DNA from: Nannocystis sp.
Lineage (GTDB): Bacteria; Myxococcota_A; Polyangia; Nannocystales; Nannocystaceae
Length of the DNA: 64,000 nucleotides
Reading direction: 5' to 3'
Assembly (NCBI RefSeq): GCF_016714285.1
Contig: NZ_JADJNN010000008.1
Location: 324,669 to 388,668, forward strand
Positions 1,305 to 34,789 of this stretch are shown here, one piece after another. Under the pieces are notes generated by a model that saw only the letters and a list, made by a program, of their open reading frames with translations, did no database searches and had not been told where the DNA came from. Both the position numbers and the translations under genes were made by a program. The first letter of the stretch is position 1; each line of letters begins with the position of its first letter.

Positions 1305-1316
1305 GGTCCGACGCTA

Positions 1317-8623: not shown

Positions 8624-8700
8624 TCGGTCGCTGCGATCCGGGGGCCGCGAGCAGGGGTGGTTGAGCCGGCGCGCGCGCGCGGGTAGAGTCGCGGCTGCGC

Positions 8701-9423: not shown

Positions 9424-9470
9424 CGGGCAGCGGCGCCGCGAGCTCACGGCGTATTCGTCGTGAGCCGCGG

Positions 9471-12495: not shown

Positions 12496-12730
12496 TGAGA
12501 GGACCCCCAGGTGGATGATGCCAGCATCCAACGCCGGTCGACGCGGTCGGCCTACAGTCGGCGCGCGACGATCGGGCGCGGGCGCGTTCGCTCGCGTCGC
12601 GGAGCGGCACCTGCAAGCGTTGCACGCCGCTGCAGGGCCTGCGGCCGTGGGTCGACGGGTTGTCCATGATCTCGGCCCGCTCGCGTTGGCGCGGTAGTTG
12701 CGAACAGGGTGACCCCACGGAGATCCTTCG

Positions 12731-13138
12731 ATGACCACGCTCTCGCGTCCGCAGAAATTCACCCTGGAATCGCTCTACCTCCCTATCCCGGCGAGCTTGG
12801 GCGAGGACGGCCCCCCCGCGCACGGCGTGAAGCTCGGGCTCACCGGTCGCGCTGGGAGCTCCAATCTGGTCGGCACCCTGCAGCTCGACCCCAACGCCTG
12901 CACCCTCAATTCGTTCGGGGACCGCGAGATGTGCACCAAGATCGCGATTCGCTCGACGTCGGTGACCGCCACCCTGATGCCCGTCCCCGATCCCAAGGGG
13001 CTCCACCGCAGCTACTACATGCTGCAGGGCGAGCACCTCGCGCCGTTGACGGCGCTGATCGTGGATCCGCAGCACCAGCGGCACTATCTCAAGTGCAACG
13101 ATACGATCGTCGCGCTGTTCCCCGACGACGGCGCCTGA
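12731..13138 (+). CDS. Small hypothetical protein (135 aa) immediately upstream of the S8 peptidase
   Basis: Coherent codon usage and a non-low-complexity sequence. 12 bp separate it from the peptidase gene. Confidence 0.5.
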   Translation: MTTLSRPQKFTLESLYLPIPASLGEDGPPAHGVKLGLTGRAGSSNLVGTLQLDPNACTLNSFGDREMCTKIAIRSTSVTATLMPVPDPKGLHRSYYMLQGEHLAPLTALIVDPQHQRHYLKCNDTIVALFPDDGA

Positions 13139-18215: not shown

Positions 18216-18441
18216 CGCGGCACTTTGCCACGCCCCGGCGGCGAATCGTCATTCAATCGTTCGTGGCGCGGGACGTGGATTCCTGCGCGCGCGGCGGACG
18301 CAATGCTTGCACTTGTGATACACATCGATATGGGAGTGGAACGACGGGCCAGCGATGGCCTGGCGCGGTCGGCCCCGCGACGATCGTCGGCCCGCGCCGG
18401 GCTGATGCCCGGCCACGCATGCGTGATACCCTGCCGCGACG

Positions 18442-19719
18442 ATGCCGTTCGTGATCGGGGATCCGCCGAGCGCCCTGCGCGTGCTTCGCCTCGCGGACGC
18501 GCGGACGGCCGGCAGCGAGCTGCAGCAGCTCGGCGTGACCACGCCCGCGCCGACCCTCGCGCTGGTCGGCGGGGCGGCGAGCCTGGGCGAGGCCGCCCAG
18601 GCGGTGCTGCGGCCGCTGTTCGTCGACGGCCTGGTGCCCGCGGTCGCGGCCCTGGCGGGGATCGTGGTCGACGGCGGCACGGCGGTGGGGGTGATGCGCC
18701 TGATCGCGGAGGCGCGCGCAGCCGCCGGGGCCCAGTTCCCGCTGATCGGCGTCGCGGCGGCGGGCCGCGTCTCGCTCGGCGACGGCGACGCGGGCCACGA
18801 CACGGTCGCGGCCGAGCCGCGGCACAGCCACCTGATTCTCGTCCCGGGCGATCGCTGGGGCGACGAGTCGCCGTGGCTGTCGGAGATCGTCGGGCTGCTC
18901 GCCGGGCCCGCGCCTTCGCTGACGGTGTGCGCCGGCGGCGGCGACATCACCGTCGAGGACCTCGAGAACAGCGTGGCGGCCGGGCGCGCGGTGATCTTGA
19001 TCGAGGGCAGCGGCGGCACGACCGACGCGGTCGCCGCGGCCCTGACCACGCGGAGCGCGGACCCGCGGCTGCGTCGCCTGGCCCAGGCCGGCAAGTTTCG
19101 CGTCGTGCGCAGCCGCGACGGCGCGGCCGCGCTGCGGGCTGCGATCGAGGCGGAGCTCCAGCCCGGGGCGCAGGCGTGGCCCGGGCCGAAGCCGCCGGCG
19201 CCGGTGCTCGGCGAGGCGGGGCTGCTCGCCGCGATCGCGGCGCTGCAGCTGGGGGCGACGCAGGTCAATTACCTGAGCGCGCGCTGGCTCGACCAGGTGC
19301 GCTGGCTCGACGCCAAGGCGGTCCTGTGCCAGCGCCGCTACTACCGGTCGCGGCGCAGCATCCTCGTGTGCAGCGCGCTGGTGCCGGTGCTGCTGGCGGC
19401 GGCGGAGGGCTACGCGGCGCTGCAGATCGCCGCCGGCGGGCTCAGCCTGGTGGTGACGATCGCGGCGGGCTGGGAGGCGTTCTTTCGTTACGGCGATCGC
19501 TGGCGGCACTACCGGGCGATCGCGGAGCGGCTGCGGCGGGAGGGTTGGCTGTACATCGAGCGCAGCGGGCCCTACGCGGACTACCCGAGCCACGCCCGGG
19601 CCCACGCGGCCTTCGTCCTGAACGCGGAGCAGATCCTCGCCGACGACGTCGAGCAGTTCGTGTCGCGGATCGCCGCGGAGCCGCAGCGCGGGCAGAGCAC
19701 GTCCGCCACACCGCCGTGA
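18442..19719 (+). CDS. SLOG/LOG-like Rossmann domain fused to a C-terminal two-TM domain (SMODS/SLOG-associated 2TM-effector-like, DUF4231-like)
   Basis: LOG-like motifs IVVDGGTAVGVMRLIAEA and CAGGGDITVEDLENSV..ILIEGSGGT. C-terminus YYRSRRSILVCSALVPVLLAAAEGYAALQIAAGGLSLVVTIAAGWEAFFRYGDRWRHYRAIAERLRREGWLY has two hydrophobic helices followed by a W..YR...E.L..EGWLY tail. Confidence 0.65.
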   Translation: MPFVIGDPPSALRVLRLADARTAGSELQQLGVTTPAPTLALVGGAASLGEAAQAVLRPLFVDGLVPAVAALAGIVVDGGTAVGVMRLIAEARAAAGAQFPLIGVAAAGRVSLGDGDAGHDTVAAEPRHSHLILVPGDRWGDESPWLSEIVGLLAGPAPSLTVCAGGGDITVEDLENSVAAGRAVILIEGSGGTTDAVAAALTTRSADPRLRRLAQAGKFRVVRSRDGAAALRAAIEAELQPGAQAWPGPKPPAPVLGEAGLLAAIAALQLGATQVNYLSARWLDQVRWLDAKAVLCQRRYYRSRRSILVCSALVPVLLAAAEGYAALQIAAGGLSLVVTIAAGWEAFFRYGDRWRHYRAIAERLRREGWLYIERSGPYADYPSHARAHAAFVLNAEQILADDVEQFVSRIAAEPQRGQSTSATPP

Positions 19720-19734
19720 GCATGGGCCGCGCGG

Positions 19735-22700
19735 TCACTTCGCGTTGCAGCGGTCGACCTGCAGGGCGGGGCAGACGTGGGTCGACTGGCGGAGCAGCTG
19801 CTCGGCCAGCACGGACTCGTAGGAGTAGTAACAGCCGGCCTCGATCACGTGGCACAGGGTCTGCTCGTAGCCGTCGTGCTTGTTGGCCGAGCGGCGCAGG
19901 GCGTCGAAGAAGAGGGCCTCGCACTGGAAGAACTCGTAGGTCTGCGGGCTCTGCGAGTAGAGGGGCTTGGCGTAGTCCTGGCGGGTGAAGACGATCCGCT
20001 GGTCGTTGCGGAGGCTGCACAGCAGGTGCTCGCGCCACGGCGTGAGGTCGCCTTCCTTCTGGAGCTCAGCGTCGGCCAGCGATCGCGGCTTGTCGCAGTC
20101 GAGGTCGCCTTTATTCTGCTCGGGGGGGAGGAGCGCGGAGAGCAGCTTCTCGGCTTCGCCGCGGCGCCCGGCCTGGACCAGGCGCCACCACAGCATCATG
20201 GCGACGTAGTGGCGGTCCTCGGTCGCGGTGCCGGCGATGAAGTCGCGGGCGTGGCCCTCGAAGCCGTCGCCGAGCAGCAGGTGGGCGAAGGCCGGGTGGA
20301 GCTCCGCGCCGGGGCCCTGGCCGCGAACGACACGCAGCGGTCCGTCGGCGATCCGGGCGGCCTCGATGAGGTCGACGCGGAGCGCGAGGAAGGCGCGCAA
20401 GGTGAGGTCGTAGCTGGTCCTGTCGCTGTCAGGGCCGAGCGCGGCGCCGGCTTCGTCGTAGCAGCCGAGCATGCGCTCGGCGTCGGCGGTGAGCACCCGG
20501 CGCTGGGAGGCGCTGATCCCCGCGAGGCCAGGCGCCTTCAGCTGGGTCCGAAGGGCGCGCAGGCAGCTGCGCCGGACATCGCGGGGCTGCTGGAGGGCCC
20601 AGCTGAGCGCGAGCCGGGAGGCGCTGGGGGCCTTGTCCTTGAGCTGGGCGAGGGGGAGCGCGCAGGTCCGGGTGAAGGTCTCGAAGGCGCCGGGCTTGAG
20701 CAGGTTCTTGAGCAGGGTCTCGAGCAGCTCGGGTGGACCGCCGATCCGCTGGCGGGCGACCTCATCGGCGAGGGCCATGAGCGCCGCGTCGGGGAGGCGG
20801 TCCATCGCCAGGTCGAGCATCAGCTGGGTGCAGCTGCGACTGTCGAACTCATTGCAGATGTCCAGGGCGCGGTCGTAGGCGGTGTCCCACGCGCCGATGC
20901 TCAGGTCGTCGGGCGCGGCGGCTGCGGCGGAGCGTCCGGCGCCCGCGCTCGCGGGCCCGCGCTCGCCGTTCAGGAGGCCCCGGATCTGGGCGCGGTAGCC
21001 GGGGAACTGGTTGCTCTCGAGGGCGGCGCGCAGGAGGTTGGTGCCGAGCATCAGGCCGGTGCGGGCGTCGCGGCCCGGGTCGGCGAGCGTGCCGAGGATC
21101 GTCGCGGGTTCGCGGCCGAGGTCCAGCAGATCCTTGCAGACGCGGTCGAAGCCGTCTGGCGGGATGTGGTCCGCCAGGCGATCGAGCATCGTGCGCGAGA
21201 AGTGGCGCGAGAGATCGTCGAGCCGCTCGGGGTGCTCACCGCGGAAGCGACGCGGGTCGCCGAAGCACACGTGATCGAGGCGGGCCCGCAGCAGCTGGTC
21301 GACGGTGTCCGGGGCCGCGTAGTTGGCGATGAAGTCCGGGCGTAGGTCGCCGCGCTTCGCCGCGGCCAGGAAGATCGCCGTGGCCTCGTCAGGATCGTCG
21401 TGGACGAGGGCATCGATGCCCTGGTCGGTCCAGCTCACGGTCGGGCGCGGCCCGGCCGGGTCAGCGCGCAGGAGATCGAGGAGCCCGGTCGCGGTGCAGG
21501 CCTGTGGGTCATTGGCCGCGGCGCAGTACACGTGCCAGAAGGGCAGGCTGTGGAGCAGCCAGGGCAGCTGGTCGCGCGCCCGCTCCGGCTGCTCGCTGCG
21601 CCACCACAGCGCGCGCACGAGCGCGGGGAGGTCACGGGCCACGACCGGTTGGGCGAGCCACCGCTCGAGGCCCGGAGGATGATGGATGGCCGCGAGGAGC
21701 TCGCTCGCCGAGAGGTCGCCGAAGGGTCGCGGAGTCGGGATGCCGGCGAAGAGCATGTCGACGATCTCGTCGTGGCCGGGCGGCGGCGGGTCGTCGCAGT
21801 GATCATTCGCCGGCAGGTCGGGGTCGGGCCGGGTGGGGGTCGGCGCGTCCTCGGCGAGCCGGGCCGCGAGCTCGCTGGCCAGGAAGTCGCGCTGGCGGCC
21901 GCGGTCCACGGGTGGCACCTCGAGCGCGAGCAGCCAGTCGACCGCGGCGGGCCAGCGCTCGCCACGGAGGCCGTCGCGGGCCGCGAGGATGAAGGCCTCG
22001 CGCAGGCGACCCGCGAGCAGCTCGCGGACGTGGGGGCGACAAGCGGCGTCGTCGCGGCAGCTCGGTGACCAGCGCAGCGCGGCCTCGCTGGCCTGGCACT
22101 GCGCGCGTCGGTCGACCCGCGCGAGCATCGCCTCGACGAAGTCCGGCGTGACGTAGAGCGAGGGGTCGGCGGCGACGCGGGCGAACGCGGTGGTTGCGAT
22201 CGCGGCGGCGCTCGCGGGATAGGTGGCGAGCTCGGGGTGCTGGCGTGCGAGCAGACGCCACAGCGGGGCGCTCCACGCCGCGGCGCGCCCCGGGTGACTC
22301 GCCGTGGGATCGTCGCCGGTGAGAAAGCCGGTGAGAGAACCGGTGAGAAAGCCGGACTCGCGGAGGAGCTTCCAGGGCAGCGAGGGCCGCTCGCGGTCTG
22401 GATCCGCGGTCGCTGGGGCCTCCGCCGCGGGGCGCCGCTCGCGGTCTGGATCCGCGGTCGCTGGGGCCTCCGCCGCGGGGTCGTGGAACACGGCGAGGCC
22501 CGGGCGCGGCGGGCCGGAGGGGAGGGTCAGGCGGACCGACAGCGCGCCGCCGTCGATCTCGAGCTTGAGCTCGTGGTCCGCGAGGCTCGCGTCGCGCCGG
22601 GCCAGGACGGCGAGCGGCACGGGGAGGTGGTGCTCGCGCCAGTGCTTGCCCGCCAGGTTGCGCCACAGCGCGACGATCGCCGGGGAGTCGGAGTCGTCGC

Positions 22701-24240
22701 CGCGGTGCACGATCGTCAGGGCGGCAGGCTTCGCGGGCGCCTGCGTCGGGTCGCAGGGGTCGCGGGGTCCGAGGACGGCGCGCCACACGAGGCCGCGGCG
22801 GAGGCCGGCGAGCAGGCCGGCGGTGGTCTGGCCGCGCAGGCGCCGGATGCTGGCGAAGCGACCGCGGCCCTCGAGCTCGAGGGCCCAGGTCCACAGGCTG
22901 CGGGTCGCGCTGTTCAGCTCATCGCAGCCGCTCGCCGAACGCACCAGCTCGAGCTGGGTCGCCTCCTCGGCGGCATCCCGGGAGATGAGCACGCTGAGCA
23001 TGGCGATCGGCACGGCGATCACCGACAGGACGATCGCGGCGATCACCGCGCGGACCCGGCGGCGTTGCTTGCGGCGGGCGGCTGCGGCGACGCGGCCGAG
23101 CTCCTCCTCGACGAAGGGGCGCAGCACGCGGGTGAAGGCGTCGTGGAACAGCTCGACGACCTCGCCGCGGTCGCGGCGGTGGACGATGCGCTCGCGGTCG
23201 AGGTGGTCGAGCACTGCGTCGATGCGTGGGCGCGGGAGCCCCAGCTGGGACGCGAGGACGTCGACCGGGTAGGCCATGCGGACGCCGATCCGCGGCGCGA
23301 GCAGGCCGAGCACGCGGGCGGTGTCCTGGCGGAGCTGGCCGGTGAGCTCGCGGGTCGCGTCCGTCACGAAGGTGGCGACGATGCCGTCGCAGCCGCCGAG
23401 CTGGCGGTACAGCGCGAGGGTCAAGCGCGGCGCGGCGTCGCCGGCGACGGCGGCCCACAGGCGCCGGAGGACGATCTGCAGGAAGGGTAGGGAGATGCCC
23501 GCGGGCTGGCTCGTGTCGGTCTTCAGCCCGCTGGCGACCACGTCGCCGCGCAGGTCGAGCAGCAGCGCCTCGACCAGCCCTGGCTCGACCTCGCCGTGGA
23601 ATTCAGGCAGGCGCGCGGGCTCGCGGATCGCCTCCTCGGCCTGCTTGCCGGCCAGCGGCCCCAGGCGGTAGACGGCCTGCGGGATCGTCAGGAAGTGCGG
23701 GCGCAGGGCCTCGAGGCTGGCGAGGTACTCCTCGCGCAGCGACAGCACCACGCGCACCGCTGTGTCGTTGCGCAGCAGCGACCCGAGCGCCGCGCCGAGA
23801 GCGTCGAGCTCGGCGGCGTGGCGGATGAACACCTGCTCGAACTGGTCGAGCACGAGGACCAGGCCCTGGGCGTGCGAGGCGGCGGCGAGGCGGGCGGCGG
23901 CGGGCAGGTCGCTCGCGCCGGCGCCGAGGCTCGCGACCAGCGCGGCCTGGATGCTCGCCAGCGGCGATCCGGCCCAGCTGTCGACGTAGACCGGGAGGGC
24001 CCCGAGCTCGCGCAGCGCCGGGACGATGAGGGTCCGCAGCAGCGAGCTCTTGCCGGCGCCGGAGGGCGCGACCATCACCGCCAGCGAGGTGGCGAGGATC
24101 GTGTTGCGGACCAGCTTGCCCTCGGGCTGGCGGCCGAAGAACAGGGCCCGCTCCGACTCGTCGTAGGGGCGCAGCCCGACGTAGGGGCCGGCCGGGCGCG
24201 GGCCGAGCGGGCGCGGGCCGAGCGGGCGCGGGTCGGTCAC
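19735..24240 (-). CDS. STAND-class P-loop NTPase with a TM segment and long alpha-helical C-terminal region
   Basis: GTG start at 24240, with GGAG 6 nt upstream, overlaps the TGA of the upstream gene (GTGA). N-terminus has PRPLG repeats, then PYVGLRPYDESERALFFGR. Walker A: MVAPSGAGKSSLLRTLIVPAL. Walker B: LVLVLDQFEQVF. TM helix RAVIAAIVLSVIAVPIAMLSVLI. Confidence 0.8.
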   Translation of the reverse strand: MTDPRPLGPRPLGPRPAGPYVGLRPYDESERALFFGRQPEGKLVRNTILATSLAVMVAPSGAGKSSLLRTLIVPALRELGALPVYVDSWAGSPLASIQAALVASLGAGASDLPAAARLAAASHAQGLVLVLDQFEQVFIRHAAELDALGAALGSLLRNDTAVRVVLSLREEYLASLEALRPHFLTIPQAVYRLGPLAGKQAEEAIREPARLPEFHGEVEPGLVEALLLDLRGDVVASGLKTDTSQPAGISLPFLQIVLRRLWAAVAGDAAPRLTLALYRQLGGCDGIVATFVTDATRELTGQLRQDTARVLGLLAPRIGVRMAYPVDVLASQLGLPRPRIDAVLDHLDRERIVHRRDRGEVVELFHDAFTRVLRPFVEEELGRVAAAARRKQRRRVRAVIAAIVLSVIAVPIAMLSVLISRDAAEEATQLELVRSASGCDELNSATRSLWTWALELEGRGRFASIRRLRGQTTAGLLAGLRRGLVWRAVLGPRDPCDPTQAPAKPAALTIVHRGDDSDSPAIVALWRNLAGKHWREHHLPVPLAVLARRDASLADHELKLEIDGGALSVRLTLPSGPPRPGLAVFHDPAAEAPATADPDRERRPAAEAPATADPDRERPSLPWKLLRESGFLTGSLTGFLTGDDPTASHPGRAAAWSAPLWRLLARQHPELATYPASAAAIATTAFARVAADPSLYVTPDFVEAMLARVDRRAQCQASEAALRWSPSCRDDAACRPHVRELLAGRLREAFILAARDGLRGERWPAAVDWLLALEVPPVDRGRQRDFLASELAARLAEDAPTPTRPDPDLPANDHCDDPPPPGHDEIVDMLFAGIPTPRPFGDLSASELLAAIHHPPGLERWLAQPVVARDLPALVRALWWRSEQPERARDQLPWLLHSLPFWHVYCAAANDPQACTATGLLDLLRADPAGPRPTVSWTDQGIDALVHDDPDEATAIFLAAAKRGDLRPDFIANYAAPDTVDQLLRARLDHVCFGDPRRFRGEHPERLDDLSRHFSRTMLDRLADHIPPDGFDRVCKDLLDLGREPATILGTLADPGRDARTGLMLGTNLLRAALESNQFPGYRAQIRGLLNGERGPASAGAGRSAAAAAPDDLSIGAWDTAYDRALDICNEFDSRSCTQLMLDLAMDRLPDAALMALADEVARQRIGGPPELLETLLKNLLKPGAFETFTRTCALPLAQLKDKAPSASRLALSWALQQPRDVRRSCLRALRTQLKAPGLAGISASQRRVLTADAERMLGCYDEAGAALGPDSDRTSYDLTLRAFLALRVDLIEAARIADGPLRVVRGQGPGAELHPAFAHLLLGDGFEGHARDFIAGTATEDRHYVAMMLWWRLVQAGRRGEAEKLLSALLPPEQNKGDLDCDKPRSLADAELQKEGDLTPWREHLLCSLRNDQRIVFTRQDYAKPLYSQSPQTYEFFQCEALFFDALRRSANKHDGYEQTLCHVIEAGCYYSYESVLAEQLLRQSTHVCPALQVDRCNAK

Positions 24241-26318
24241 GCGGGTCTCCGGGCCCGCAGGGCGCGGACGAGGGTCGGGAGTTCGATCGAGCTCATGTCG
24301 ACGTGGAACTGCTCCCACAGCCGCTGCTCGAGCGTCGAGGCGGGCTCGCGCACGGCGAGCGCACCGCTGCGGCGATCGTCGTCGCGGGCCGCTTCGCGCT
24401 GGAGTCGCGGCTCGCGGCGGAAGAACGCGTGCCCGATCAGGCGATAGTGCCAGATGTCGAGGTTGAAGCCGAGGAACAGCAGGCGCCGGGTGTACAGCTG
24501 CAGGGCGAAGGCGCTGGGGATCGTCGTGTGCTGGTGCTCGAGCTGGGCGAGGAAGGTGATGTGGTCGCTCTCGGTGATCACGACGGTGTCGAGCTCGCGG
24601 TCGCGGACGGCGGGGTGCTCGGCGAGGAAGGGCGAGCCGAGCAGCTTGTAGATGACGCAGTCGTCGTCGTCGATCTCCGCCTCGAGCTCGGAGGTCAGGC
24701 GGACGGCGGCCGCGGTCGCGGGGTCCCGGCCGCGGGGGTGATGCGCGCTGCGCAGGAGCAGCGCCTTGCCGATGTCATCGCCGGCCGAGCGGAGGATGTG
24801 GCTGACGAGCACGTAGGGGCGCCCGGCCTCGTCGAGGGCGCGCTCGAGCTCGAGGTCGTGGGTCGTGGAGATCACGAACCATGGCGGCTTCATGTCGAGG
24901 ATCATGTCGAACGCCGCCGGCGGCGCGAGCTGGGCCGGTCCGCCGAGGATCTCGCGCAGCTCGACGAGGAAGGCCGGGCGGCCGCGCTCGAACTGCAGCG
25001 CCTCCGCGGCGGCGGCCATCGTCGGGTTGTGGCCGGCGCCGAGGCCGGCGCGCTCGCTGAGCTGCTTGACGATGGCGTAGTAGTTGCGCTGCGAACCGTC
25101 CCAGATGCCGTCGCCGAGGAAGGGGATGAGCTCGCCGCGCCAGAACACCGGGGCGATGCGGTCGACGAACTGTTGCTGCAGCGGGTGGAGCTTGATGTCG
25201 GCGAGCACGCTGCCGCTGCGGCGGCGCAGCTGCATCTCGCTCGGCTTGGTGTTGAAGACCAGCGGCAGGACGCCCTCGCCGAGGGCGACCTGGATCGCCT
25301 GCAGGACCTCCTCGACGGTGCTGATGCCGTCGTGGTTGCTGTCGGCGGCGTCGTTGCTGAGCGCGTGCAGCAGCAGCCCGGTCAGGGGGCTGTGCGCGTC
25401 CTGCCAGGCCTCGGGGCGCGCCGCCGGGCCCGCGCTGGTGGCCAGCAGGACCTTGCCCGGGCCGGGCCCGAGCTGGGTGCGCAGCTGGGCCTCGACCTCG
25501 GCCTTCGCGGTGTCGCCGTAGCAGGCGTCGAGGACGATGAAGAGGTGACCGACCTGGGTCTGGTCGAGGAACATCTGCTTGATCAGCGCGAGCGAGACGC
25601 CGGCCGGGAGCTCGCTGTTGCGGGCGGGGAGGAAGGGGCCGAAGCCGGTGAAGCTGACGTGGCCGGCGAAGTACAGCAGGACGAAGTCGTCGTGGCTGGC
25701 CGGCGCGAGCAGGTCGGCGATCGCCCGCATCAGCTGGCGGCCGTCGGGGTCGACGAGGCTGACGACCTCGAACTCGCACTCGGGCCACGTGAGCGCCTCG
25801 GCGAGGCGCAGGACGTTGCGCTCCGCGGCCGGCAGCGCCGGCGCGTCCGCGCCGCGGGACAGCGCGACCAGCAGGGCACGCCGGCCGCTGCGCTTCGGCG
25901 CGGACGCGGTGGTCGCGGGCGGGGCGGCGAGCCAGGCCCGGATGTCCGCGACGAGCTTGCGAAAGGCCGGGGCGCCGCGGTCACCGATCCAGTCGATGAG
26001 GTCGATGGTCTGGATCTGGTCGTAGGGCTTGGGCGGCGCGACGGGGTCGAGGCGGACCGGGACCAGGACGCCGCGTCGTCGGCCCTCGTCGGCCTCGGAG
26101 CGGATCCAGGTCCGCTGCTCGTCGATCGCGTGCCGCGACCACAGGACGACCACGCAGGCGGCCCGCTCGACCCGCGCCTGCAGCTCGCCGGCGTAGGCCG
26201 TGCCGGCGCGGAGGTCGGCGTCCCACCACACGTCGAGGCCCTCGTCGCGCAGGGCGGTGACGAGGGCGAGGGCGCGCTCGCGATCCTCGCTCGCGTGGCT
26301 GACAAAGACCTGGGACAT
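24237..26318 (-). CDS. Tri-domain effector protein: TIR + caspase-like (C14) + SIR2-like
   Basis: TIR: QVFVSHASEDRERALALVTALRDEGLDVWWD ... VVVLWSRHAIDEQRTWIRSEADEG (S.W...E glutamate present). Caspase dyad contexts LLYFAGHVSF and HLFIVLDACYGD. SIR2-like: GELIPFLGDGIW, VVITESDHITF, RRLLFLGFNLDIWHYRL. Confidence 0.8.
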   Translation of the reverse strand: MSQVFVSHASEDRERALALVTALRDEGLDVWWDADLRAGTAYAGELQARVERAACVVVLWSRHAIDEQRTWIRSEADEGRRRGVLVPVRLDPVAPPKPYDQIQTIDLIDWIGDRGAPAFRKLVADIRAWLAAPPATTASAPKRSGRRALLVALSRGADAPALPAAERNVLRLAEALTWPECEFEVVSLVDPDGRQLMRAIADLLAPASHDDFVLLYFAGHVSFTGFGPFLPARNSELPAGVSLALIKQMFLDQTQVGHLFIVLDACYGDTAKAEVEAQLRTQLGPGPGKVLLATSAGPAARPEAWQDAHSPLTGLLLHALSNDAADSNHDGISTVEEVLQAIQVALGEGVLPLVFNTKPSEMQLRRRSGSVLADIKLHPLQQQFVDRIAPVFWRGELIPFLGDGIWDGSQRNYYAIVKQLSERAGLGAGHNPTMAAAAEALQFERGRPAFLVELREILGGPAQLAPPAAFDMILDMKPPWFVISTTHDLELERALDEAGRPYVLVSHILRSAGDDIGKALLLRSAHHPRGRDPATAAAVRLTSELEAEIDDDDCVIYKLLGSPFLAEHPAVRDRELDTVVITESDHITFLAQLEHQHTTIPSAFALQLYTRRLLFLGFNLDIWHYRLIGHAFFRREPRLQREAARDDDRRSGALAVREPASTLEQRLWEQFHVDMSSIELPTLVRALRARRPA

Positions 26319-26462
26319 GATCGCAGCGGAGCGCGCAGCGGCTTGTGTACCACCATCGGCCGCTGTGTTGCAGGTGATCGAGGCGGGCTTTCTCGTCGAC
26401 GTCGTCGATATCGGGGCCGCGCGAGCGGCCGCGTCCGCGCTGCCCGGCGGCGCCCGGCGGTC

Positions 26463-26900
26463 CTACGGCGAGCTTCGCCGGCGCCGCAGGAGGGGCGTGA
26501 GGAGGAGCAGCAGGAAGGGGGCGGCGGGCGTCCCGGGAGCCACGCGGCAGCCGCTCGTGGTCTTTGCCGGTTGAGACGCCGCGGGGTCTGGCGCTTGTGT
26601 CGCTGGCGTCTGCGATGCCGGGGTTTGTGATGCCGGCGCTGGTGCTGCCGGCGGGGCCCCGGCCTGACAGCGCAGGCAGTCGTGGCTGACCACCTCGGGC
26701 GGCGTGCCCTTCGAGTAGTCGAGGCGGGAGCAGCGGTCCGCGACGCAGGTCCCGGGGCCGCCGCGGAAGTCGCAGGCGTCGCCGGCCTTGCTGGCGCCGC
26801 AGACGAGGTCCTCCGGGGGCGGCGCCTCGTCGGCGCGGGCCGATGCGGGCAGGACGAGGGCGGCGAGTACGAGGATTGGGAGCGGGAGGCGGGTCGGCAT
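26463..26900 (-). CDS. Secreted Cys-containing protein with MYXO-CTERM sorting tail
   Basis: Signal MPTRLPLPILVLAALVLPASARA. C-terminus TSGCRVAPGTPAAPFLLLLLTPLLRRRR (GC + hydrophobic + basic) is the MYXO-CTERM pattern. Confidence 0.55.
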   Translation of the reverse strand: MPTRLPLPILVLAALVLPASARADEAPPPEDLVCGASKAGDACDFRGGPGTCVADRCSRLDYSKGTPPEVVSHDCLRCQAGAPPAAPAPASQTPASQTPATQAPDPAASQPAKTTSGCRVAPGTPAAPFLLLLLTPLLRRRRSSP

Positions 26901-27005
26901 GTCTGTGGATATCTCCGGGGCTGGGTCGATTAGCGAGGTGGTGCTCATGCGGAGTCGGCGTGGAGCAGGGCCCGGAGGCAGGGGATGACGCCGCGAAGTT
27001 GGGGC

Positions 27006-27501
27006 TCACTCGCGCGGCTCGTCGTCGGTCGGAGCGGACCAGTATCCACGCATCAGCTCGGTCATCCACGCGGGCTGGCGCAGCGGGCCGCGGGGCGCGA
27101 ATTCCTGCACCCACGGCTTGAGGTCGAGGACGGGTGTGCCGTCGACGGCGTCGAGGCCGGCGAGCTCGAGCGTGAGGCCGGTGACGCGCTCGATGCGACA
27201 GACGCTGAGGCCGAGTTGGTTCGGGCGATTCTTGCCGCGCTGGGCGAAGATGCCGACCGCGGGCCAGTCGCTGTTGTTGCGCGGGTGCCGGGCGCCGGTC
27301 TCGATGCGGGTCGGGTCGACCTGGTCCATGTGGAAGATGACCTCGACGTGCGAGAAGCTGTCGAGGCCGGCGAGGGCGTCGGGGCTGAAGCGGGCCGGGT
27401 CGAGCTCGATGCGGGCCACCACGGCGTCCCAGTCGTCATCGAGGAGGGGGCGCCGGGTCGAGCGGACGAAGCCGATCGGCTGCAGGATGATCGCGGTCAC
27501 G
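27006..27501 (-). CDS. tsaA: TsaA/YaeB-family SAM-dependent tRNA methyltransferase
   Basis: LDAVDGTPVLDLKPW and IELDPARFSPDALAGLDSFSHVEVIFHM are typical of the YaeB/TsaA family. Start is taken at GTG 27501 (VTAIILQ). The frame stays open upstream through the 18-bp repeat array, so the start is uncertain. Confidence 0.65.
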
Positions 27502-27528
27502 CGGCGCCTCCCCAATGGCGCAGCCGAA

Positions 27529-27621
27529 AAGGGTGGCGCGGCCGAGAAGGGTGGCGCGGCCGAGAAGGGTGGCGCGGCCGAGAAGGGTGGCGCGGCCGAG
27601 AAGGGTGGCGCGGCCGTGGAG
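27529..27621. repeat. 18-bp tandem repeat x5 (gggtggcgcggccgagaa) immediately 5' of the tsaA start
   Basis: Perfect head-to-tail copies. The last copy is degenerate (..gccgtggagaa). Translated in the tsaA frame it would give AAPPFS x5. Confidence 0.85.
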
Positions 27622-27736
27622 AATCTGCGGAGATCCGGGCCGACATCACGGCGAGGGTGACGCGCGGGCGCGGGGTCTGTCAAGCGGGCCACGCCGCCGC
27701 GGGCTGTCACCCGTGTTCGCGCCGTCGTGGGCCCGA

Positions 27737-27840
27737 TTTATCGACTCGCTTTGTCCGGACTTGCTTTGTCTGGACTCGCTTTGTCCGGACTTGCTTTGTC
27801 TGGACTCGCTTTGTCCGGACTCGATTTGTTCGCACTCGCT
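27737..27840. repeat. 15/30-bp tandem repeat array (ctttgtccggacttg / ctttgtctggactcg alternating, ~6.5 units) in the divergent intergenic region
   Basis: Seen directly at 27737-27840, between the tsaA 5' end and the OmpA-like lipoprotein start. Confidence 0.85.
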
Positions 27841-27939
27841 TGGGGGGCCGCCGCGAGCGATCGCGCGTGCGGCCGCGGTCCGTCGGCGCGCGATCATGGA
27901 TCACGAGGCGGCCGTTCTTTGCCGGTACACTCGCGGCGC

Positions 27940-28572
27940 GTGGCACCTCGATGGCTCGGGTCGGTGGCGGTGATGGGGCTTGTCGTCGCCTGTCCTTCGG
28001 GACAGGCGACACGGCCGCCAGACACGACGGCCGCGCCGCCGAGCGAGCCCGTTGGCGCCGCCGCGCCGCCGGCGGTGGATCGCTGTCCGCCGGGGAGCAC
28101 AGCGGAGGGCTGCCCGCCGCTCGACACCGACGGCGACGGGATCGTCGACGGCGACGACAAGTGCCCGGACAACCCCGAGACCCGGAACGGCTATGAGGAC
28201 GCGGACGGCTGCCCGGACGAGATCCCGGTGGCGGTCACGCGGTACAAGGGGACGATCCCGAAGGTACGCTTCGAACGCGACTCGGCGGCGATCAGCGAGT
28301 CGCAGGCGCTGCTGGACGCGGCCGTGGCCGTGTTGCTGGACTACCCGGCCATGCAGGTCGAGATCTCCGGGCACACGGCCGCGGGGGAGCGGCCGGAGCT
28401 GTCGCTGCGCCGCGCCGAGGCGGTGCGCGACTACCTGGTCGCGCACGGCGTCGCGGGCGAGCGCCTGCGGGTCCGCGGCGCCGCGGAGGAGGAGCCGATC
28501 GGTGACCTGGCGACCGCCGCTGGCAAGGCCAAGAACCGACGCGTCGAGTTCACGATCCTGGAGTCCGAATGA
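27940..28572 (+). CDS. OmpA-family lipoprotein with TSP3 repeats
   Basis: GTG start gives VAPRWLGSVAVMGLVVAC (lipobox). TSP3 repeats DTDGDGIVDGDDKCPDNPETRNGYEDADGCPD. OmpA C-terminal domain: QVEISGHTAAGERPELSLRRAEAVRDYLVAHGVAGERLRVRGAAEEEPI...NRRVEF. Confidence 0.65.
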   Translation: MAPRWLGSVAVMGLVVACPSGQATRPPDTTAAPPSEPVGAAAPPAVDRCPPGSTAEGCPPLDTDGDGIVDGDDKCPDNPETRNGYEDADGCPDEIPVAVTRYKGTIPKVRFERDSAAISESQALLDAAVAVLLDYPAMQVEISGHTAAGERPELSLRRAEAVRDYLVAHGVAGERLRVRGAAEEEPIGDLATAAGKAKNRRVEFTILESE

Positions 28573-28608: not shown

Positions 28609-30651
28609 GTGCGTGAATGTGCGGAGCTGGAGATCGGGCTGTCGCGGCGCGACGCGGGGTCGTACGCGGTCGAGCTGCGCTTCACGCAGCCGGGCAGCGA
28701 CGCCGATGTGCGGGTCGGCGAGGGCGAGGGGCTGGCCTGCGCGCTGGATCTGGCGGGCCTCAAGGAGCTGCTGGCGCAGCCGGAGGCGTACGGGCGGGCG
28801 CTCGGGGCGGGCCTGTTCGCGGCGCCGAAGGTGGCCGAGACGCTGGCCCGCGCCCAGGCGGCGGCCGCCAGTCAGGACCTGCCGCTGCGCGTGCGCCTGG
28901 CGATCGCGGTCGACGTGGCCGAGCTGCACGGGCTGCGCTGGGAGCTGCTGCGGACGCCGGACGGGACCCTGGTCAGCGCGGGCGAGCGGATCTTGTTCTC
29001 GCGTTACCTTGCGAGCGTCGACTGGCAGACGGTCAAGCTGCGGCCGCAGGCGTCGCTGCGGGCGCTGATCGTGATCGCTGCGCCGGCCGGGTTGGCGGCG
29101 TACGGGCTGGCGGAGCTCGACGTCGCGGCCGAGCTGGCGCGCGCGCAGGCGGTGCTGGCGGGGATCGAGACGGTGGCGCTGGCGGGGCCGGGTCAGGCGA
29201 CCGCGACGGCGATCATCGACGCGCTGCGCAGCGGCTTCGACGTGCTGTACGTGGTGGCGCACGGGTCGTGGCAGCGCGGTGAGGCGTTCGTGTGGCTCGA
29301 GGACGCGGCCGGCGCGGTGGCCCGGATCGCCGGGGCCACGCTGATCGCCCGGGTCGCCGAGCTGCAGCAGCGGCCGCGGCTGTGCGTGCTGGCCTCGTGC
29401 GAGAGCGCGGGCGCGGGCGCGGGGGAGGACCCCGCGGTGCTGGCCGCGCTCGGGCCGGGGCTGGCGCGCGCCGGGGTGGCGGCGGTGGTGGCGATGCAGG
29501 GCCCGCTGAGCGTGGCGACGGCGGCGGTGTTGCTGCCGCGGCTGTTCGCGGAGTTGTTGCAGGACGGGCAGGTCGATCGGGCGCTGGCGGTCGCTCGCGC
29601 GGCGGTCCGTGAGCGGAGCGACTGGTGGATGCCGGTGCTGTTCATGCGCCTGCGCTCGGGACGGATCTGGTACACGCCGGGCTTCGGCGGCGAGGGCGGG
29701 CAGTTCGAGAAGTGGCCGGCGCTGCTCCGCAGCATCGCCCAGGGGCGCTGTACGCCGGTGCTCGGGCCGGCCCTCGGCGACGCGCTGCACGGGTCGTCGC
29801 GCGAGCTGGCCCACCGCTGGGCCGACGAGTACGGCTACCCGATGGCGCCGGGCGGGCGCGAGGATCTGCCGCACGTGGCGCAATACCTGGCGGTCCACCA
29901 GGACGAGCGGTTTCCGATGGACAAGCTCGAGGGGTCGCTGCGCGACGCGGTGGTGTCACGATTCCCGCAGGTGCTCACGGGGGGCGCGGGCGAGGGCACG
30001 CTCGACGAGGTGCTGGCGCGGGTGGCCGACTGGCGGCTGGCGCAGGGGAGCTTCGATCCGTACCAGGTGCTCGCGCGGCTGCCGTGTCCGCTGTATGTGA
30101 CGACGGCGAGCGACGGGCTGCTGGCGCATCACCTGCGTCTGGCGGGTCGTTCACCGCAGGTCGCGCTGTGCCCGTGGAACCCCGACGTGGTGGCCGACGC
30201 GGCCGTCGCCGAGGCGGCGAGCGTGGAGCGGCCCGCGATATATCACCTGTTCGGGCATATCTCGGCCCCGAACTCGCTGGTGATCACGGAGAACGATATC
30301 TTCGACTTCTTGATCAGCGTGAGCGCGGATCGCGAGGTGATCCCGCCGCGGGTGCGGGCGGCGCTGGTCGACTCGTCGCTGCTGATCCTCGGGTTTCCGA
30401 TCGACGATTGGAAGTTTCGCGTGTTCTTTCGCAGCCTGATGAACCGGGCCGGCGGGGGCCGGCGCAAGCGCTACACGCACGTGGCGGCGCAGATCGATCC
30501 GGAGGAGGCGCAGACGATCGACCCGGCGCGCACGCGGCGTTACCTCGAGGAGTACTTCGAGGGCTCGGACATCACGATCTATTGGGGCAGCGCGGAGGAC
30601 TTCCTGCGCGAGCTCGCCGGGCGGCTGCCGGGGGGGAGGCCGGGCGCTTGA
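28609..30651 (+). CDS. CHAT (caspase-like) + SIR2-like two-domain effector protein
   Basis: CHAT His/Cys contexts LYVVAHGSWQRGEAFVWLED and RLCVLASCESAGAG. SIR2-like: CTPVLGPALGDALHG, PLYVTTASDGLL, VITENDIFDFL, SSLLILGFPIDDWKFRVFF. Confidence 0.8.
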   Translation: MRECAELEIGLSRRDAGSYAVELRFTQPGSDADVRVGEGEGLACALDLAGLKELLAQPEAYGRALGAGLFAAPKVAETLARAQAAAASQDLPLRVRLAIAVDVAELHGLRWELLRTPDGTLVSAGERILFSRYLASVDWQTVKLRPQASLRALIVIAAPAGLAAYGLAELDVAAELARAQAVLAGIETVALAGPGQATATAIIDALRSGFDVLYVVAHGSWQRGEAFVWLEDAAGAVARIAGATLIARVAELQQRPRLCVLASCESAGAGAGEDPAVLAALGPGLARAGVAAVVAMQGPLSVATAAVLLPRLFAELLQDGQVDRALAVARAAVRERSDWWMPVLFMRLRSGRIWYTPGFGGEGGQFEKWPALLRSIAQGRCTPVLGPALGDALHGSSRELAHRWADEYGYPMAPGGREDLPHVAQYLAVHQDERFPMDKLEGSLRDAVVSRFPQVLTGGAGEGTLDEVLARVADWRLAQGSFDPYQVLARLPCPLYVTTASDGLLAHHLRLAGRSPQVALCPWNPDVVADAAVAEAASVERPAIYHLFGHISAPNSLVITENDIFDFLISVSADREVIPPRVRAALVDSSLLILGFPIDDWKFRVFFRSLMNRAGGGRRKRYTHVAAQIDPEEAQTIDPARTRRYLEEYFEGSDITIYWGSAEDFLRELAGRLPGGRPGA

Positions 30652-34424: not shown

Positions 34425-34710
<286 letters not shown>

Positions 34711-34789
34711 GCGGCAGGCGGGCACGGCTCCGCACGGGCGCTCGGGCTCGGCACGCGCGCGCTGAAGCGCTACCATGCGCGCAGCGAGA

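Follow-up and report, generated by a model that had tools for sequence, protein, structure and literature searches.

The nSTAND1 clade was defined by Kaur et al. for conflict systems of multicellular bacteria (PMC8195603), in which nSTAND1 and EACC1 systems are enriched (PMC7159879). Autoproteolytic effector release has been proposed for EACC1 systems (Kaur et al. 2020, PMC7159879), and TIR/PNPase effectors of conflict systems co-occur with SLATT genes (PMC7159879). TIR domains are well documented as NADase effectors (bioRxiv 10.1101/2024.10.24.620036; bioRxiv 10.64898/2025.12.03.692087). The TIR acts through N7-cADPR on a caspase in type IV Thoeris (bioRxiv 10.1101/2024.10.24.620036) and through cADPR on SLATT in type VII Thoeris (bioRxiv 10.64898/2025.12.03.692087). 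STAND sensors of the transmembrane (TM) type have been proposed as readers of periplasmic signals (bioRxiv 10.1101/2022.07.19.500537).

The locus described here lies in a 64,000-nucleotide stretch of DNA from Nannocystis sp. (the window, to which all coordinates refer). An earlier note on this DNA singled out a gene for a TIR, caspase-like and SIR2-like protein (gene A) coupled to a membrane NTPase gene (gene B), and likened the pair to conflict systems of multicellular bacteria. The likeness holds, as B is a STAND protein of the nSTAND1 clade (Pfam; PMC8195603), and the module belongs with the Aravind-type nSTAND1/EACC1-caspase conflict systems. That note did not mention a SLOG-SLATT gene, a predicted extracytoplasmic sensor in B or a paralogous gene pair 2.3 kb away. 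On balance, we lean towards reading the locus as a three-gene conflict module, for immunity or regulated cell death, built around a membrane-spanning, NLR-like STAND receptor that clusters a TIR-caspase effector.

Gene organization and conservation of the A-B pair

Gene A (24237..26318, minus strand, ATG start) encodes a 693-residue TIR/caspase-like/SIR2-like protein, identical to WP_293272433.1 in the protein collection, which NCBI annotates as 'TIR domain-containing protein [Nannocystis sp.]'. Gene B (19735..24240, minus strand) encodes a membrane-anchored nSTAND1 NTPase of 1501 residues, counted from the GTG at 24240; the longest open reading frame begins 27 codons upstream, inside A. The Nannocystis sp. 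records of B read 'hypothetical protein' at NCBI and 'nSTAND1 domain-containing NTPase' in UniRef. A and B are real genes rather than chance reading frames of high-GC DNA, because their third-position GC is 0.96 and 0.89, respectively, and their regions have dN/dS values of 0.05–0.57 in a single pairwise comparison with a 92%-identical relative. Overlapping antisense reading frames, such as 24303..26630 (plus strand), were without support and were rejected.

The translational coupling claimed earlier can be read directly at the junction of the two genes (24237..24250, minus strand), where, on the coding strand, a GGAG ribosome-binding site (24250..24247) is followed by a 6-nt spacer, the GTG start of B (24240..24238) and the overlapping TGA of A (24239..24237), forming the GTGA overlap. 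The junctions between A and the start of B in relatives have the same 4-nt or 14-nt overlaps. The two genes also co-occur outside this genome: the next gene after an A-family gene encodes an nSTAND1 protein in 28 of 29 related loci; in the exception, the neighbor of the A-family gene encodes 1572 residues without a Pfam hit on record. The caspase-pseudoSIR2 core and the nSTAND1 partner are constant across these loci, and the N-terminal module of the A family varies: it may be a TIR domain or a trypsin, be absent with a separate EACC1 gene present, or be encoded as a separate TIR gene.

The SLOG-SLATT gene and the three-gene block

The SLOG-SLATT gene (18442..19719, plus strand) is convergent with B across a 15-bp gap and is not co-transcribed with the A-B pair. 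Its product combines a SLOG domain (LSDAT_prok, 190.6 bits) with a two-TM SLATT/DUF4231 domain (DUF4231, 87.7 bits; NCBIfam SLATT_1, 106 bits), and from these matches it is a candidate nucleotide-gated membrane effector. By analogy with Thoeris, opening of the SLATT pore is probably controlled by the TIR product.

The three genes and their outer intergenic regions form a block (18274..26457, no strand assigned) that recurs in another locus, L107, within an otherwise unrelated genomic context. A blastn comparison of L107 with the whole window gave a sole match, of 8.2 kb and 92% identity (L107 positions 2109–10166 to window positions 26457–18274), and none of the genes that flank it in L107 has a homolog in any part of the window. 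A second locus, L084, from a 54%-GC organism, shares with the window only SLOG-SLATT, A and B. Its SLOG-SLATT homolog (44% identical) adjoins the A homolog, which has lost the caspase dyad and retained the TIR glutamate. We regard the three genes, including the convergent SLOG-SLATT gene, as the real unit, not just the A-B pair. Of about 30 loci with the pair, 3, from two lineages, also have SLOG-SLATT, and it went undetected in all 17 metagenomic loci. The gene is an accessory arm and not a core part of the system, and the TIR domain must act otherwise in loci without it.

These observations bear on a two-gene alternative, to which we give a real but minority chance, in which the STAND protein activates A, the TIR domain burns NAD+ as a terminal effector, like the TIR effectors of Avs, CBASS or pAgo systems, the caspase degrades proteins, and SLOG-SLATT is an independent neighbor. 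Such a scheme would suit the roughly 27 of 30 related loci in which the pair occurs without SLOG-SLATT, the opposite strand of that gene in the window and the well-documented NADase activity of TIR effectors. However, the block that has moved between genomic contexts includes SLOG-SLATT within its exact limits, this gene belongs to the only gene set common to the 54%-GC organism, and the domain that L084 retained beside it is the TIR, not an intact caspase.

The paralogous pair 2.3 kb from the module encodes a CHAT-pseudoSIR2 protein and an nSTAND1-TM-WD40 protein, and a type II methyltransferase gene is also found in the neighborhood. This second protease-pseudoSIR2 and nSTAND1 pair, together with the methyltransferase, lends the surroundings a defence-island flavour; PADLOC recognized no known defence system at the locus.

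Gene B and its predicted sensor

The NTPase module of B (residues 19–371; 23128..24186, minus strand) matches nSTAND1 (PF20703) with 149 bits, so that the P-loop NTPase of the earlier note stands, with its length corrected from 1500 to 1501 residues. All the motifs quoted there are present: three PRPLG-type repeats, PYVGLRPY at residue 19, FFGR at residue 34, GAGKS of Walker A (K64) and DQFEQ of Walker B (D132). The module shares 40–49% identity with the proteins that partner A-family genes in other loci, whereas the window paralog B2 shares 24–33% with those same proteins.

The one TM helix expected in B corresponds to residues 399–421 (22978..23046, minus strand), the sole strong hydrophobic segment of the protein (Kyte-Doolittle score 2.76, next best 1.29), with a net charge of +7 on its N-terminal flank and −3 on its C-terminal flank. 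An equivalent single TM segment is found in every readable nSTAND1 partner protein. Cysteines are concentrated beyond the helix, with 22 of 23 on that side (2.04% of the C-terminal region vs 0.25% of the N-terminal part). On the basis of hydropathy, flank charge and cysteine bias only, the region that follows (residues 426–1501; 19738..22965, minus strand) is predicted to face the outside of the cytoplasm, as a sensor.

This C-terminal region of about 1080 residues is mostly α-helical and Cys-rich (22 Cys). It is an orphan, for which 1.84 billion representative proteins yielded just 11 matches; seven of these were scanned with Pfam and five, 1460–1670 residues long, are nSTAND1 proteins. Its AlphaFold model is of low confidence (mean pLDDT 59.6) apart from a confident helical tail that is TPR-like, and gave no significant fold match, weak TPR-like ones at most. 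The stretch of about 1000 residues of helical repeats described earlier thus keeps its helical character and its tail, but no repeat family was detected in it. Between loci, the region after the TM helix varies, being a WD40 region, an RHS region or the orphan region seen here. In the same pairwise comparison, the sensor as a whole has a dN/dS of 0.57, which rises to 1.05 over its last 240 residues, vs 0.05–0.31 for all other parts.

A sensor in this position would also suit a role other than antiphage defence, namely cell death linked to development or to self/non-self distinction in a social, predatory myxobacterium, where the same machinery would respond, through its periplasmic sensor, to kin signals, damage to the envelope or molecules from prey or competitors. 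We consider such a role rather unlikely, though it would agree with the enrichment of nSTAND1 and EACC1 systems in multicellular bacteria (PMC7159879). The organism being Nannocystis and the negative PADLOC result point the same way. Most phage cues are cytoplasmic, which also fits this role better, but phages act at the envelope too, the fast evolution of the sensor is what pathogen recognition would lead one to expect, and the neighborhood has its defence-island flavour.

TIR and caspase-like domains of gene A

The AlphaFold model of A (mean pLDDT 84.5) contains three folded domains with disordered linkers between them. Profile searches support the assignments proposed earlier for both proteins; the TIR, caspase and SIR2 matches in A all exceed the Pfam cut-offs and are backed by the AlphaFold and Foldseek folds. 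The TIR domain (residues 4–122; 25953..26309, minus strand) matches TIR_2 with 77.4 bits (cut-off 28). Its glutamate is intact, as had been noted, E75 being aligned to the position of the catalytic Glu in the TIR domain of Brucella TcpB/BtpA, but the motif reads RTWIRSE and not S.W...E. This glutamate is kept in all 16 TIR-bearing relatives, and dN/dS of the TIR region is 0.05 in the single comparison with the 92%-identical relative.

The caspase-like domain (residues 146–342; 25293..25883, minus strand) matches Peptidase_C14 with 35.2 bits (cut-off 21.4), and its fold matches include the MALT1 paracaspase and the Yca1 metacaspase (Foldseek). The His/Cys dyad reported earlier is present as His220 and Cys266; among 22 aligned sequences, the His is found in 18 and the Cys in 17, the window protein having both. 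Among NCBIfam models, 'caspase, EACC1-associated type' scores highest (62.9 bits, under its cut-off of 140). The constant caspase domain might accordingly work as a processing switch of the kind modelled for EACC1 systems, which upon activation would cut A itself at the basic linker and free the TIR or trypsin effector while sparing cellular proteins. The linker between the TIR and caspase domains is disordered and basic (KRSGRR), TIR-less relatives carry an EACC1 gene upstream, and autoproteolytic release has been proposed for EACC1 systems (PMC7159879). We nevertheless find this account doubtful: no cleavage site was identified in A, and several relatives have lost the caspase dyad yet keep the whole architecture, so cleavage is not essential to the family.

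SIR2-like domain of gene A

The SIR2-like domain (residues ~378–690; 24249..25187, minus strand) matches SIR2_2 over residues 482–673 (40.1 bits, cut-off 24.5), and its fold resembles the SIR2 domains of KomC and DSR2 (Foldseek TM-score 0.6–0.69, normalised to the target). PDB entry names for these matched proteins include the His mutants KomC H146N and DSR2 H171A. In alignments to ThsA, KomC and the canonical stand-alone SIR2 of Nonomuraea (TTNYD, KMHGS), where the canonical motifs are TTNYD and K(M/L)HGS, the domain has Thr486 at the catalytic Asn position and Leu560 at the catalytic His position. At the latter position, each of the 22 family members has Leu or Val, and none has His. Judged by these residues, the domain is a pseudo-SIR2, since both the catalytic Asn and His are absent, and A therefore carries at most two active enzymes; the earlier description of three enzyme modules in series, each a stand-alone effector, does not survive.

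The domain retains the GxG loop, Asp488 and a conserved helix at its C terminus (LVRALRA), and its invariant polar residues include E439, R447, K558, E583, D585 and R626; because many such residues are kept, a non-canonical catalytic or ligand-binding role is possible. A true triple effector, in which the domain is an enzyme such as a NADase or ADP-ribosyltransferase with non-canonical residues and another general base, would fit these features and the purifying selection on the domain (dN/dS 0.28, one pairwise comparison), but it is improbable given Thr and Leu at the Asn and His positions of ThsA, KomC and the Nonomuraea protein, the lack of a catalytic His throughout the family and the PDB His mutants of KomC and DSR2.

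In Nonomuraea, the active stand-alone SIR2, with canonical residues, abuts an nSTAND1-multiTM gene, which suggests that SIR2 is the ancestral module docking onto nSTAND1. Effector-associated adaptor domains of known type were not detected in A or B.

Proposed mechanism

In the three-gene module that we favor, the C-terminal region of B would sense an extracytoplasmic or envelope cue in the periplasm, and ligand binding would drive the NTPase to form NTP-dependent oligomers on the cytoplasmic face of the membrane. A would be recruited to the oligomer by way of its invariant pseudo-SIR2 domain and the helix at its C terminus, which may have an adaptor or assembly role instead of NADase activity, and induced proximity would activate both the caspase-like protease and the TIR domain. 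The TIR domain would then either deplete NAD+ or, more likely in this module, make an ADP-ribose-derived signal that the SLOG domain reads, opening the two-TM SLATT pore. The outcome would be death or arrest of the cell before the threat can reach the rest of the swarm. The module is rare, and it is a candidate immunity or cell-suicide system in the genome of a myxobacterium, Nannocystis.

Organisation of the gene pair

Gene A (24237..26318, minus strand) encodes a 693-residue protein with TIR, caspase-like and SIR2-like domains, and gene B (19735..24240, minus strand) encodes an nSTAND1 NTPase of 1501 residues, counted from the GTG that overlaps the TGA stop codon of gene A. The junction reads GTGA, with GGAG located 6 nt upstream of the GTG. 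Protein A is an exact match to NCBI entry WP_293272433.1 ('TIR domain-containing protein [Nannocystis sp.]'), and protein B is annotated as a 'hypothetical protein' or 'nSTAND1 domain-containing NTPase'. The gene pair, the domains and the GTGA coupling described in the earlier note were all recovered. The interpretation placed on them was upheld for the domains and the coupling, but not for the presence of three active effectors or for a unit of two genes.

Since the GC content of the window is about 73%, long open reading frames occur in all six frames, and real genes were distinguished from chance ORFs by codon-position GC, profile matches and homologs under purifying selection. Third-position GC reaches 0.96 in gene A and 0.89 in gene B, and the possibility that the long ORFs are high-GC artefacts was rejected on this measure, together with the homologs and the dN/dS ratios.

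TIR and caspase-like domains of protein A

The AlphaFold model of protein A, based on an alignment of 22 family members, has a mean pLDDT of 84.5 and consists of three folded domains joined by disordered linkers at residues 135–143 and 370–374. The TIR region (residues 1–130) is modelled with a pLDDT of about 85–94 and matches the Pfam TIR_2 profile (residues 4–122, 77.4 bits, above the gathering score). Sequence matches in the PDB include TcpB/BtpA and AbTIR; Glu75 aligns with the glutamate at the catalytic position of Brucella TcpB/BtpA, and this residue is invariant in all 16 TIR-bearing relatives. With this fold, profile and catalytic glutamate, protein A is predicted to belong to the TIR domain NAD+-processing enzymes.

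The middle domain matches Peptidase_C14 (residues 146–342, 35.2 bits versus a Pfam cut-off of 21.4), and a Foldseek search with its model returned MALT1 paracaspase and the yeast metacaspase Yca1 (E-value about 1e-7). Both residues of the caspase dyad are present, His220 in AGHV and Cys266 in DACY. Profile, caspase-hemoglobinase fold and His/Cys dyad together place this domain in the Caspase/Peptidase_C14 superfamily.

The SIR2-like domain lacks catalytic residues

The C-terminal domain is of SIR2 type by profile and fold. It matches SIR2_2 (residues 482–673, 40.1 bits, above the Pfam gathering score), KomC (5e-9) and ThsA (1e-5) in profile searches, and the defense sirtuins KomC and DSR2 in Foldseek searches (TM-score 0.6–0.69, normalised to the target), with helical assemblies of KomC as the top structural matches. 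In the family profile, YKLLG aligns with YKMHG of ThsA, and SATYD/STTHD aligns with TTNYD of KomC and ThsA. A stand-alone SIR2 with canonical TTNYD and KMHGS motifs, encoded in Nonomuraea gerenzanensis, aligns end to end with the domain (E = 4e-15) and places Thr486 (STTHD) opposite the catalytic Asn and Leu560 (YKLLGS) opposite the catalytic His. A PDB search with a short profile around the YKLLG motif gave no match; the correspondence of the His and Asn positions was set by the longer family profile and the canonical Nonomuraea protein.

Across the 22 family members, the His position is occupied by Leu (21) or Val (1) and never by His, and the Asn position by Thr (16), Asn (5) or Met (1). 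The catalytic Asn (TTNYD) and His (K-x-H-G-S) of active SIR2 enzymes are thus missing from protein A. The domain nevertheless retains the GxG loop and Asp488, and its dN/dS ratio of 0.28 relative to L107, a 92%-identical relative of the locus, indicates purifying selection. Because the catalytic residues have been lost while these features were kept under constraint, the domain is read as a pseudo-SIR2 with a retained, probably non-NADase role. A SIR2-like domain that is still active in a non-canonical way is an unlikely alternative; the retained loop, Asp488 and selection speak for it, and the family-wide absence of the catalytic His against it. In place of the three active effectors proposed earlier, protein A is thus predicted to carry at most two active enzymatic domains, the TIR and the caspase, along with a pseudo-SIR2.

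Protein B is a predicted membrane-spanning nSTAND1 NTPase with an orphan putative sensor

Residues 19–371 of protein B match PF20703 (nSTAND1) with 149.1 bits versus a cut-off of 27.1. The PYVGLRPY...FFGR motif is present, and the Walker A (SGAGKSS, Lys64) and Walker B (LVLVLDQFE, Asp132) motifs are both intact. On the basis of its profile and Walker motifs, protein B is assigned to the nSTAND1 family.

One unambiguous transmembrane (TM) segment is found at residues 399–421 (Kyte-Doolittle score 2.76; next best 1.29), with a net charge of +7 in its N-terminal flank and −3 in its C-terminal flank. A single hydrophobic helix, preceded by a basic cluster, occurs in the same place in every readable partner of genes related to gene A (the A family). 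The region that follows the helix varies between loci, with WD40 propellers at L001, L087 and in B2 (an nSTAND1 paralog elsewhere in the window), RHS repeats at L084, a locus from an organism with 54% GC, and a region of the protein B type at L088 and L089. This C-terminal region (the putative sensor, residues 426–1501 in protein B) contains 22 of the 23 cysteines of protein B, corresponding to 2.04% of its residues versus 0.25% in the cytoplasmic part. Owing to this cysteine bias and the positive-inside charge pattern, the sensor is predicted to be extracytoplasmic, and the receptor is probably outward-facing.

Among 1.84 billion representatives, exhaustive searching with HMMER found 11 relatives of the sensor. 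A Pfam scan of seven of these showed that the five with lengths of 1460–1670 residues are all nSTAND1 proteins. A word-indexed search returned only protein B itself and an 84% variant, such that the distant relatives were found by exhaustive HMMER alone. The AlphaFold model of the sensor is of low confidence (mean pLDDT 59.6) and mostly α-helical, with a small β-containing domain and a confident helical solenoid of about 330 residues at its end. A Foldseek search with this model gave no match at an E-value of 1e-3 or better; a weak TPR-like resemblance to APC/C subunits, NlpI and MalT domain III was seen, and no named fold is claimed for the sensor.

The sensor is also the fastest-evolving part of the locus in a comparison with a single relative, the 92%-identical L107. 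The sensor has a dN/dS ratio of 0.57, rising to 1.05 over its last 240 residues, compared with 0.05 for the TIR domain, 0.25 for the caspase, 0.29 for the NTPase and 0.31 for the product of the neighboring SLOG-SLATT gene. Gene B contains three in-frame tandem duplications, a perfect 48-nt duplication (16 residues, 22386..22480), a 12-nt unit in 3.4 copies (FLTG/SLTG, 22315..22355) and a 15-nt unit in 3.2 copies that encodes the N-terminal PRPLG repeats (24185..24232). All three differ between the two relatives; in the 87%-identical variant P0050, the first two are single-copy and the PRPLG repeats are missing.

The A family and its nSTAND1 partners

The A family is very rare. A word-indexed search of 5.8 billion clusters gave 22, and the family alignment, run against 185,579 species-representative genomes, found no full-length relative, the sole returns being TIR-only (TIR-TPR) proteins of Alphaproteobacteria. 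The N-terminal module is a TIR domain in most members and a trypsin-like domain in one, and is lacking in forms of about 565 residues. An EACC1 gene is located directly upstream of these shorter forms at three loci (L085/L086, L091 and L103), and EACC1 is present only in TIR-less relatives. On two metagenome contigs (L100 and L101, about 5954..10062), a separate TIR gene is divergent from a caspase-pseudo-SIR2 gene that is followed by an nSTAND1 gene; therefore, the TIR can be either fused or supplied in trans within the A family. The caspase dyad has been lost several times (e.g. in P0024, P0028 and P0030); the caspase-pseudo-SIR2 core is present in every member despite these losses.

The next gene on the same strand encodes an nSTAND1 protein at 28 of 29 related loci, usually with an overlap of 4 or 14 nt. 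The one exception has a neighbor of 1572 residues that is without a Pfam hit on record. The NTPase modules of these partners are 40–49% identical to that of protein B, whereas the same partners share only 24–33% identity with the paralog B2. These identities indicate that A and B probably co-evolve as a pair.

The trypsin-bearing member is located on a JGI metagenome contig (L088) between a relaxase-like gene and a reverse-transcriptase-like fragment (1007..2875 and 12246..12800). These neighbors hint that some A-family cassettes ride on mobile elements.

A SLOG-SLATT gene completes an 8.2-kb block

A gene at 18442..19719 (plus strand) is convergent with gene B and ends 15 bp from its stop codon. 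Its product matches LSDAT_prok (190.6 bits), SLATT/DUF4231 (87.7 bits) and NCBIfam SLATT_1 (106 bits versus a cut-off of 41), and contains two hydrophobic segments (residues 307–325 and 329–347). With these profiles and two TM segments, it is a predicted SLOG-SLATT nucleotide-gated membrane effector.

At the nucleotide level, the window and L107 are homologous in one block only (18274..26457), which comprises exactly the SLOG-SLATT gene, gene B, gene A and the outer intergenic regions; none of the genes that flank it in L107 has a homolog in any part of the 64-kb window. L084 shares with the window only the SLOG-SLATT gene (44% identity), gene A (33%) and gene B (45% over the NTPase); in L084 the SLOG-SLATT gene immediately precedes the A homolog and has the same orientation. 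The A homolog of L084 has lost the caspase dyad and kept the TIR glutamate. An apparent S8 peptidase synteny with L084 was rejected, as the two S8 genes are not detectably homologous. The two-gene unit described in the earlier note is thus replaced by a module of three genes, in which the SLOG-SLATT gene lies inside the block common to L107 and recurs with A and B in L084. SLOG-SLATT was not detected in 17 metagenomic loci, nor do the gene tables of the other related contigs include it; it is therefore an accessory arm in two lineages and not a core component.

No terminal direct or inverted repeats above background were found at the borders of the block. Searches of the window for tRNA genes and Rfam families gave no hits, and neither a sigma-70-like promoter nor a convincing terminator was seen. 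We therefore infer mobility of the 8.2-kb block from its different contexts.

Comparison with known systems

Protein B resembles the nSTAND1 conflict systems (PMC8195603) in its PF20703 domain, N-terminal PYxGLxP...FFGR motif, Walker A and DQFE Walker B motifs, and in the adjacent gene with TIR and caspase effector domains. In contrast to those systems, profile searches found no effector-associated domain (EAD) or Death-like adaptor in protein A or B, the A-family partner always has a TM helix between NTPase and sensor, and the sensor of protein B is an orphan region rather than FGS, WD40 or TPR.

The module is also related to the EACC1-caspase systems (System 4; Kaur et al. 2020, PMC7159879). 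Both are membrane-associated and combine a constant caspase with variable appended domains, TIR-less relatives of gene A have EACC1 directly upstream, and the best NCBIfam match of the protein A caspase is 'caspase, EACC1-associated type' (NF047832). However, this match (62.9 bits) is below the subfamily cut-off of 140, the window contains no EACC1 gene 5' of gene A or elsewhere, and an nSTAND1-TM protein, encoded separately, is the constant partner of the module.

Thoeris types I, IV and VII draw on the same set of domains, namely TIR, caspase-like protease, SIR2 fold, SLOG and SLATT. In ThsA the ligand is sensed by SLOG, and type VII uses SLATT as its effector (bioRxiv 10.64898/2025.12.03.692087). 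In the module, by contrast, the TIR is not a stand-alone ThsB sensor protein but is fused to the caspase-pseudo-SIR2 core and coupled to a STAND receptor, and the SIR2 fold lacks catalytic residues; PADLOC ThsB models gave weak matches (E-value 0.03 or worse). The adjacent ligand-sensing effector of Thoeris may have a counterpart in the SLOG-SLATT gene, which is co-inherited in two lineages; most relatives lack this gene, and in the window its orientation is convergent. The type IV Thoeris literature searched (bioRxiv 10.1101/2024.10.24.620036) did not give the fold of the domain with which the caspase effector binds its ligand.

Avs/AVAST and bNACHT proteins similarly combine a STAND NTPase with a sensor at the C-terminus and an effector (TIR, SIR2 or protease) that kills the cell. 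Their effector is fused at the N-terminus of a cytoplasmic protein, whereas the module has its effector on a polypeptide of its own, translationally coupled to a membrane-spanning receptor. PADLOC recognised no known defense system and matched no Avs or NLR model, giving weak domain-level matches only. TM-type bacterial STAND sensors have been noted as a category and suggested to read periplasmic signals (bioRxiv 10.1101/2022.07.19.500537), and a DGR locus is predicted to encode one NACHT protein with such a sensor; the literature searched contained no experimental characterisation of them. SIR2 is absent from the 2020 conflict-system paper (PMC7159879) and appears once, in another context, in the 2021 paper (PMC8195603). 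The module is therefore set apart as a variant.

A simpler arrangement, an unannotated pair, is that of Nonomuraea gerenzanensis (NZ_LT559118.1, 7647..10699 of locus L108), where the SIR2_2 gene abuts an nSTAND1 gene with a membrane-embedded product. Unlike gene A, this gene encodes neither TIR nor caspase, and its product keeps the TTNYD and KMHGS motifs and is presumably active; unlike protein B, the nSTAND1 protein ends in several TM helices instead of one helix and a large sensor. The coupling of an apparently active SIR2 to a membrane-embedded nSTAND1 suggests that SIR2 is the ancestral docking partner of nSTAND1, and this pair is likely the ancestral form of the coupling.

Genomic neighborhood

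A second, paralogous pair (28609..34475, plus strand) is located 2.3 kb away and transcribed divergently. It consists of a CHAT protease-SIR2_2 fusion (680 residues) and, with a TTGA overlap, an nSTAND1-TM-coiled-coil-WD40 protein (1275 residues, B2). In the SIR2-like domain of this fusion the catalytic His is again missing (IYHLFGH), as is, by eye, the Asn (TTASD), which suggests that protease, pseudo-SIR2 and membrane nSTAND1 form a broader theme. An OmpA-family gene (27727..28572, plus strand) lies directly upstream of the CHAT-protease gene (28609..30651), and another (61282..63153, minus strand) precedes a CHAT-protease gene at 59250..61316 with a 35-nt overlap; OmpA-CHAT, seen twice in the window, may be a recurrent pairing.

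The ORF at 26463..26948 (minus strand), 144 bp upstream of gene A and just outside the conserved block, encodes a small, secreted protein rich in Cys, which bears both a signal peptide and the MYXO-CTERM sorting tail (TIGR03901, 21.6 bits). This tail is consistent with a myxobacterial source. The ORF was considered as a candidate EACC1 and rejected, having no EACC1 hit and being of the MYXO-CTERM type. A TrmO_N-domain gene (27006..27710, minus strand) has an N-terminal extension made of an 18-nt repeat in 5.6 copies (APPFSA, 27516..27616), and a 15-nt repeat in 6.6 copies (27743..27841) is present at the start of the OmpA-like ORF. Repeats are unusually abundant between the two STAND systems. 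An Eco57I/TaqI-type type II DNA methyltransferase (34476..36566, plus strand; PADLOC MTase_II, 718 bits), which starts where the second nSTAND1 gene stops, adds to the defense-island character of the neighborhood. Large genes typical of myxobacteria are found at 42205..55454, encoding a Ser/Thr kinase with FG-GAP repeats (1465 residues), a Laminin_G_3/crystallin protein (1777 residues) and an RCC1 and DUF4215 protein (887 residues).

Proposed role

The reading favored for these features, with moderate confidence, is an outside-in pathway, each step of which we infer. The sensor of protein B would lie in the periplasm and, upon binding a ligand, drive NTP-dependent oligomerisation of protein B at the inner face of the membrane. 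The oligomer would recruit protein A through its pseudo-SIR2 domain and conserved C-terminal helix, and proximity would switch on both the caspase and the TIR. The product of the TIR, probably derived from ADP-ribose, would then gate the SLOG-SLATT pore. In a bolder and less likely version, protein A would form an oligomer mediated by the pseudo-SIR2, the dead sirtuin would serve as its adaptor or ligand-sensing hub, and the messenger would open a dedicated SLOG-SLATT pore while the caspase degrades proteins.

The outside-in pathway is suggested by the oligomerising nature of SIR2 folds of the KomC/DSR2/ThsA type, with KomC helical assemblies as the top matches, and by the coupling of a presumably active SIR2 to a membrane-embedded nSTAND1 in Nonomuraea. 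TIR-to-SLATT signalling has been demonstrated in type VII Thoeris (bioRxiv 10.64898/2025.12.03.692087) and TIR-to-caspase signalling in type IV (bioRxiv 10.1101/2024.10.24.620036), and the Aravind group noted the co-occurrence of SLATT genes and TIR/PNPase effectors in conflict systems (PMC7159879).

The principal rival, less likely than this pathway, is a plain NAD-depleting TIR with SLOG-SLATT as an unrelated neighbor, a reading that fits the absence of this gene from most related loci; against it, the gene lies inside the block common to L107 and recurs with A and B in L084. A role in kin recognition or development, instead of antiphage defense, is also less likely; it would suit a sensor predicted to be extracytoplasmic, and the defense-island character of the neighborhood and the fast evolution of the sensor speak against it. 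A caspase that only self-processes is a further, rather unlikely reading, which would agree with the similarity to the EACC1-associated type; the repeated loss of the dyad in the family speaks against it.

Significance

In animal Toll-like receptors, a repeat-type sensor outside the cell is combined with TIR activity inside, and in plant TNL pathways an NLR-type NTPase oligomer activates TIR catalysis, the small-molecule product of which opens a membrane channel. If the bolder version of the outside-in pathway is correct, the module would be a prokaryotic counterpart of both the Toll-like receptor topology and TNL-to-channel signalling. The comparison with Toll-like receptors and TNL-to-helper-NLR signalling is an analogy only, with no homology beyond the TIR and STAND modules and with links that are predicted here.

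To our knowledge, all characterised bacterial STAND/NLR-like immune proteins are cytoplasmic sensors with fused effectors. The A-B clade differs in that the receptor spans the membrane with a variable sensor predicted to face outward, and in that the effector is a separate coupled protein, the constant part of which is a caspase and a sirtuin fold without catalytic residues family-wide. A SLOG-SLATT pore gene accompanies the pair in two lineages, which would put an NLR-like receptor upstream of a Thoeris-like second-messenger arm. The module, if confirmed, would represent extracytoplasmic threat sensing in bacteria wired to TIR and caspase death effectors, with a sirtuin converted into an adaptor, and would offer a compact 8.2-kb system in which to study the TIR product and the activation of partners in trans by STAND oligomers. 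With this architecture, outside-in STAND signalling and an NLR-to-TIR-to-pore relay become directly testable in bacteria.
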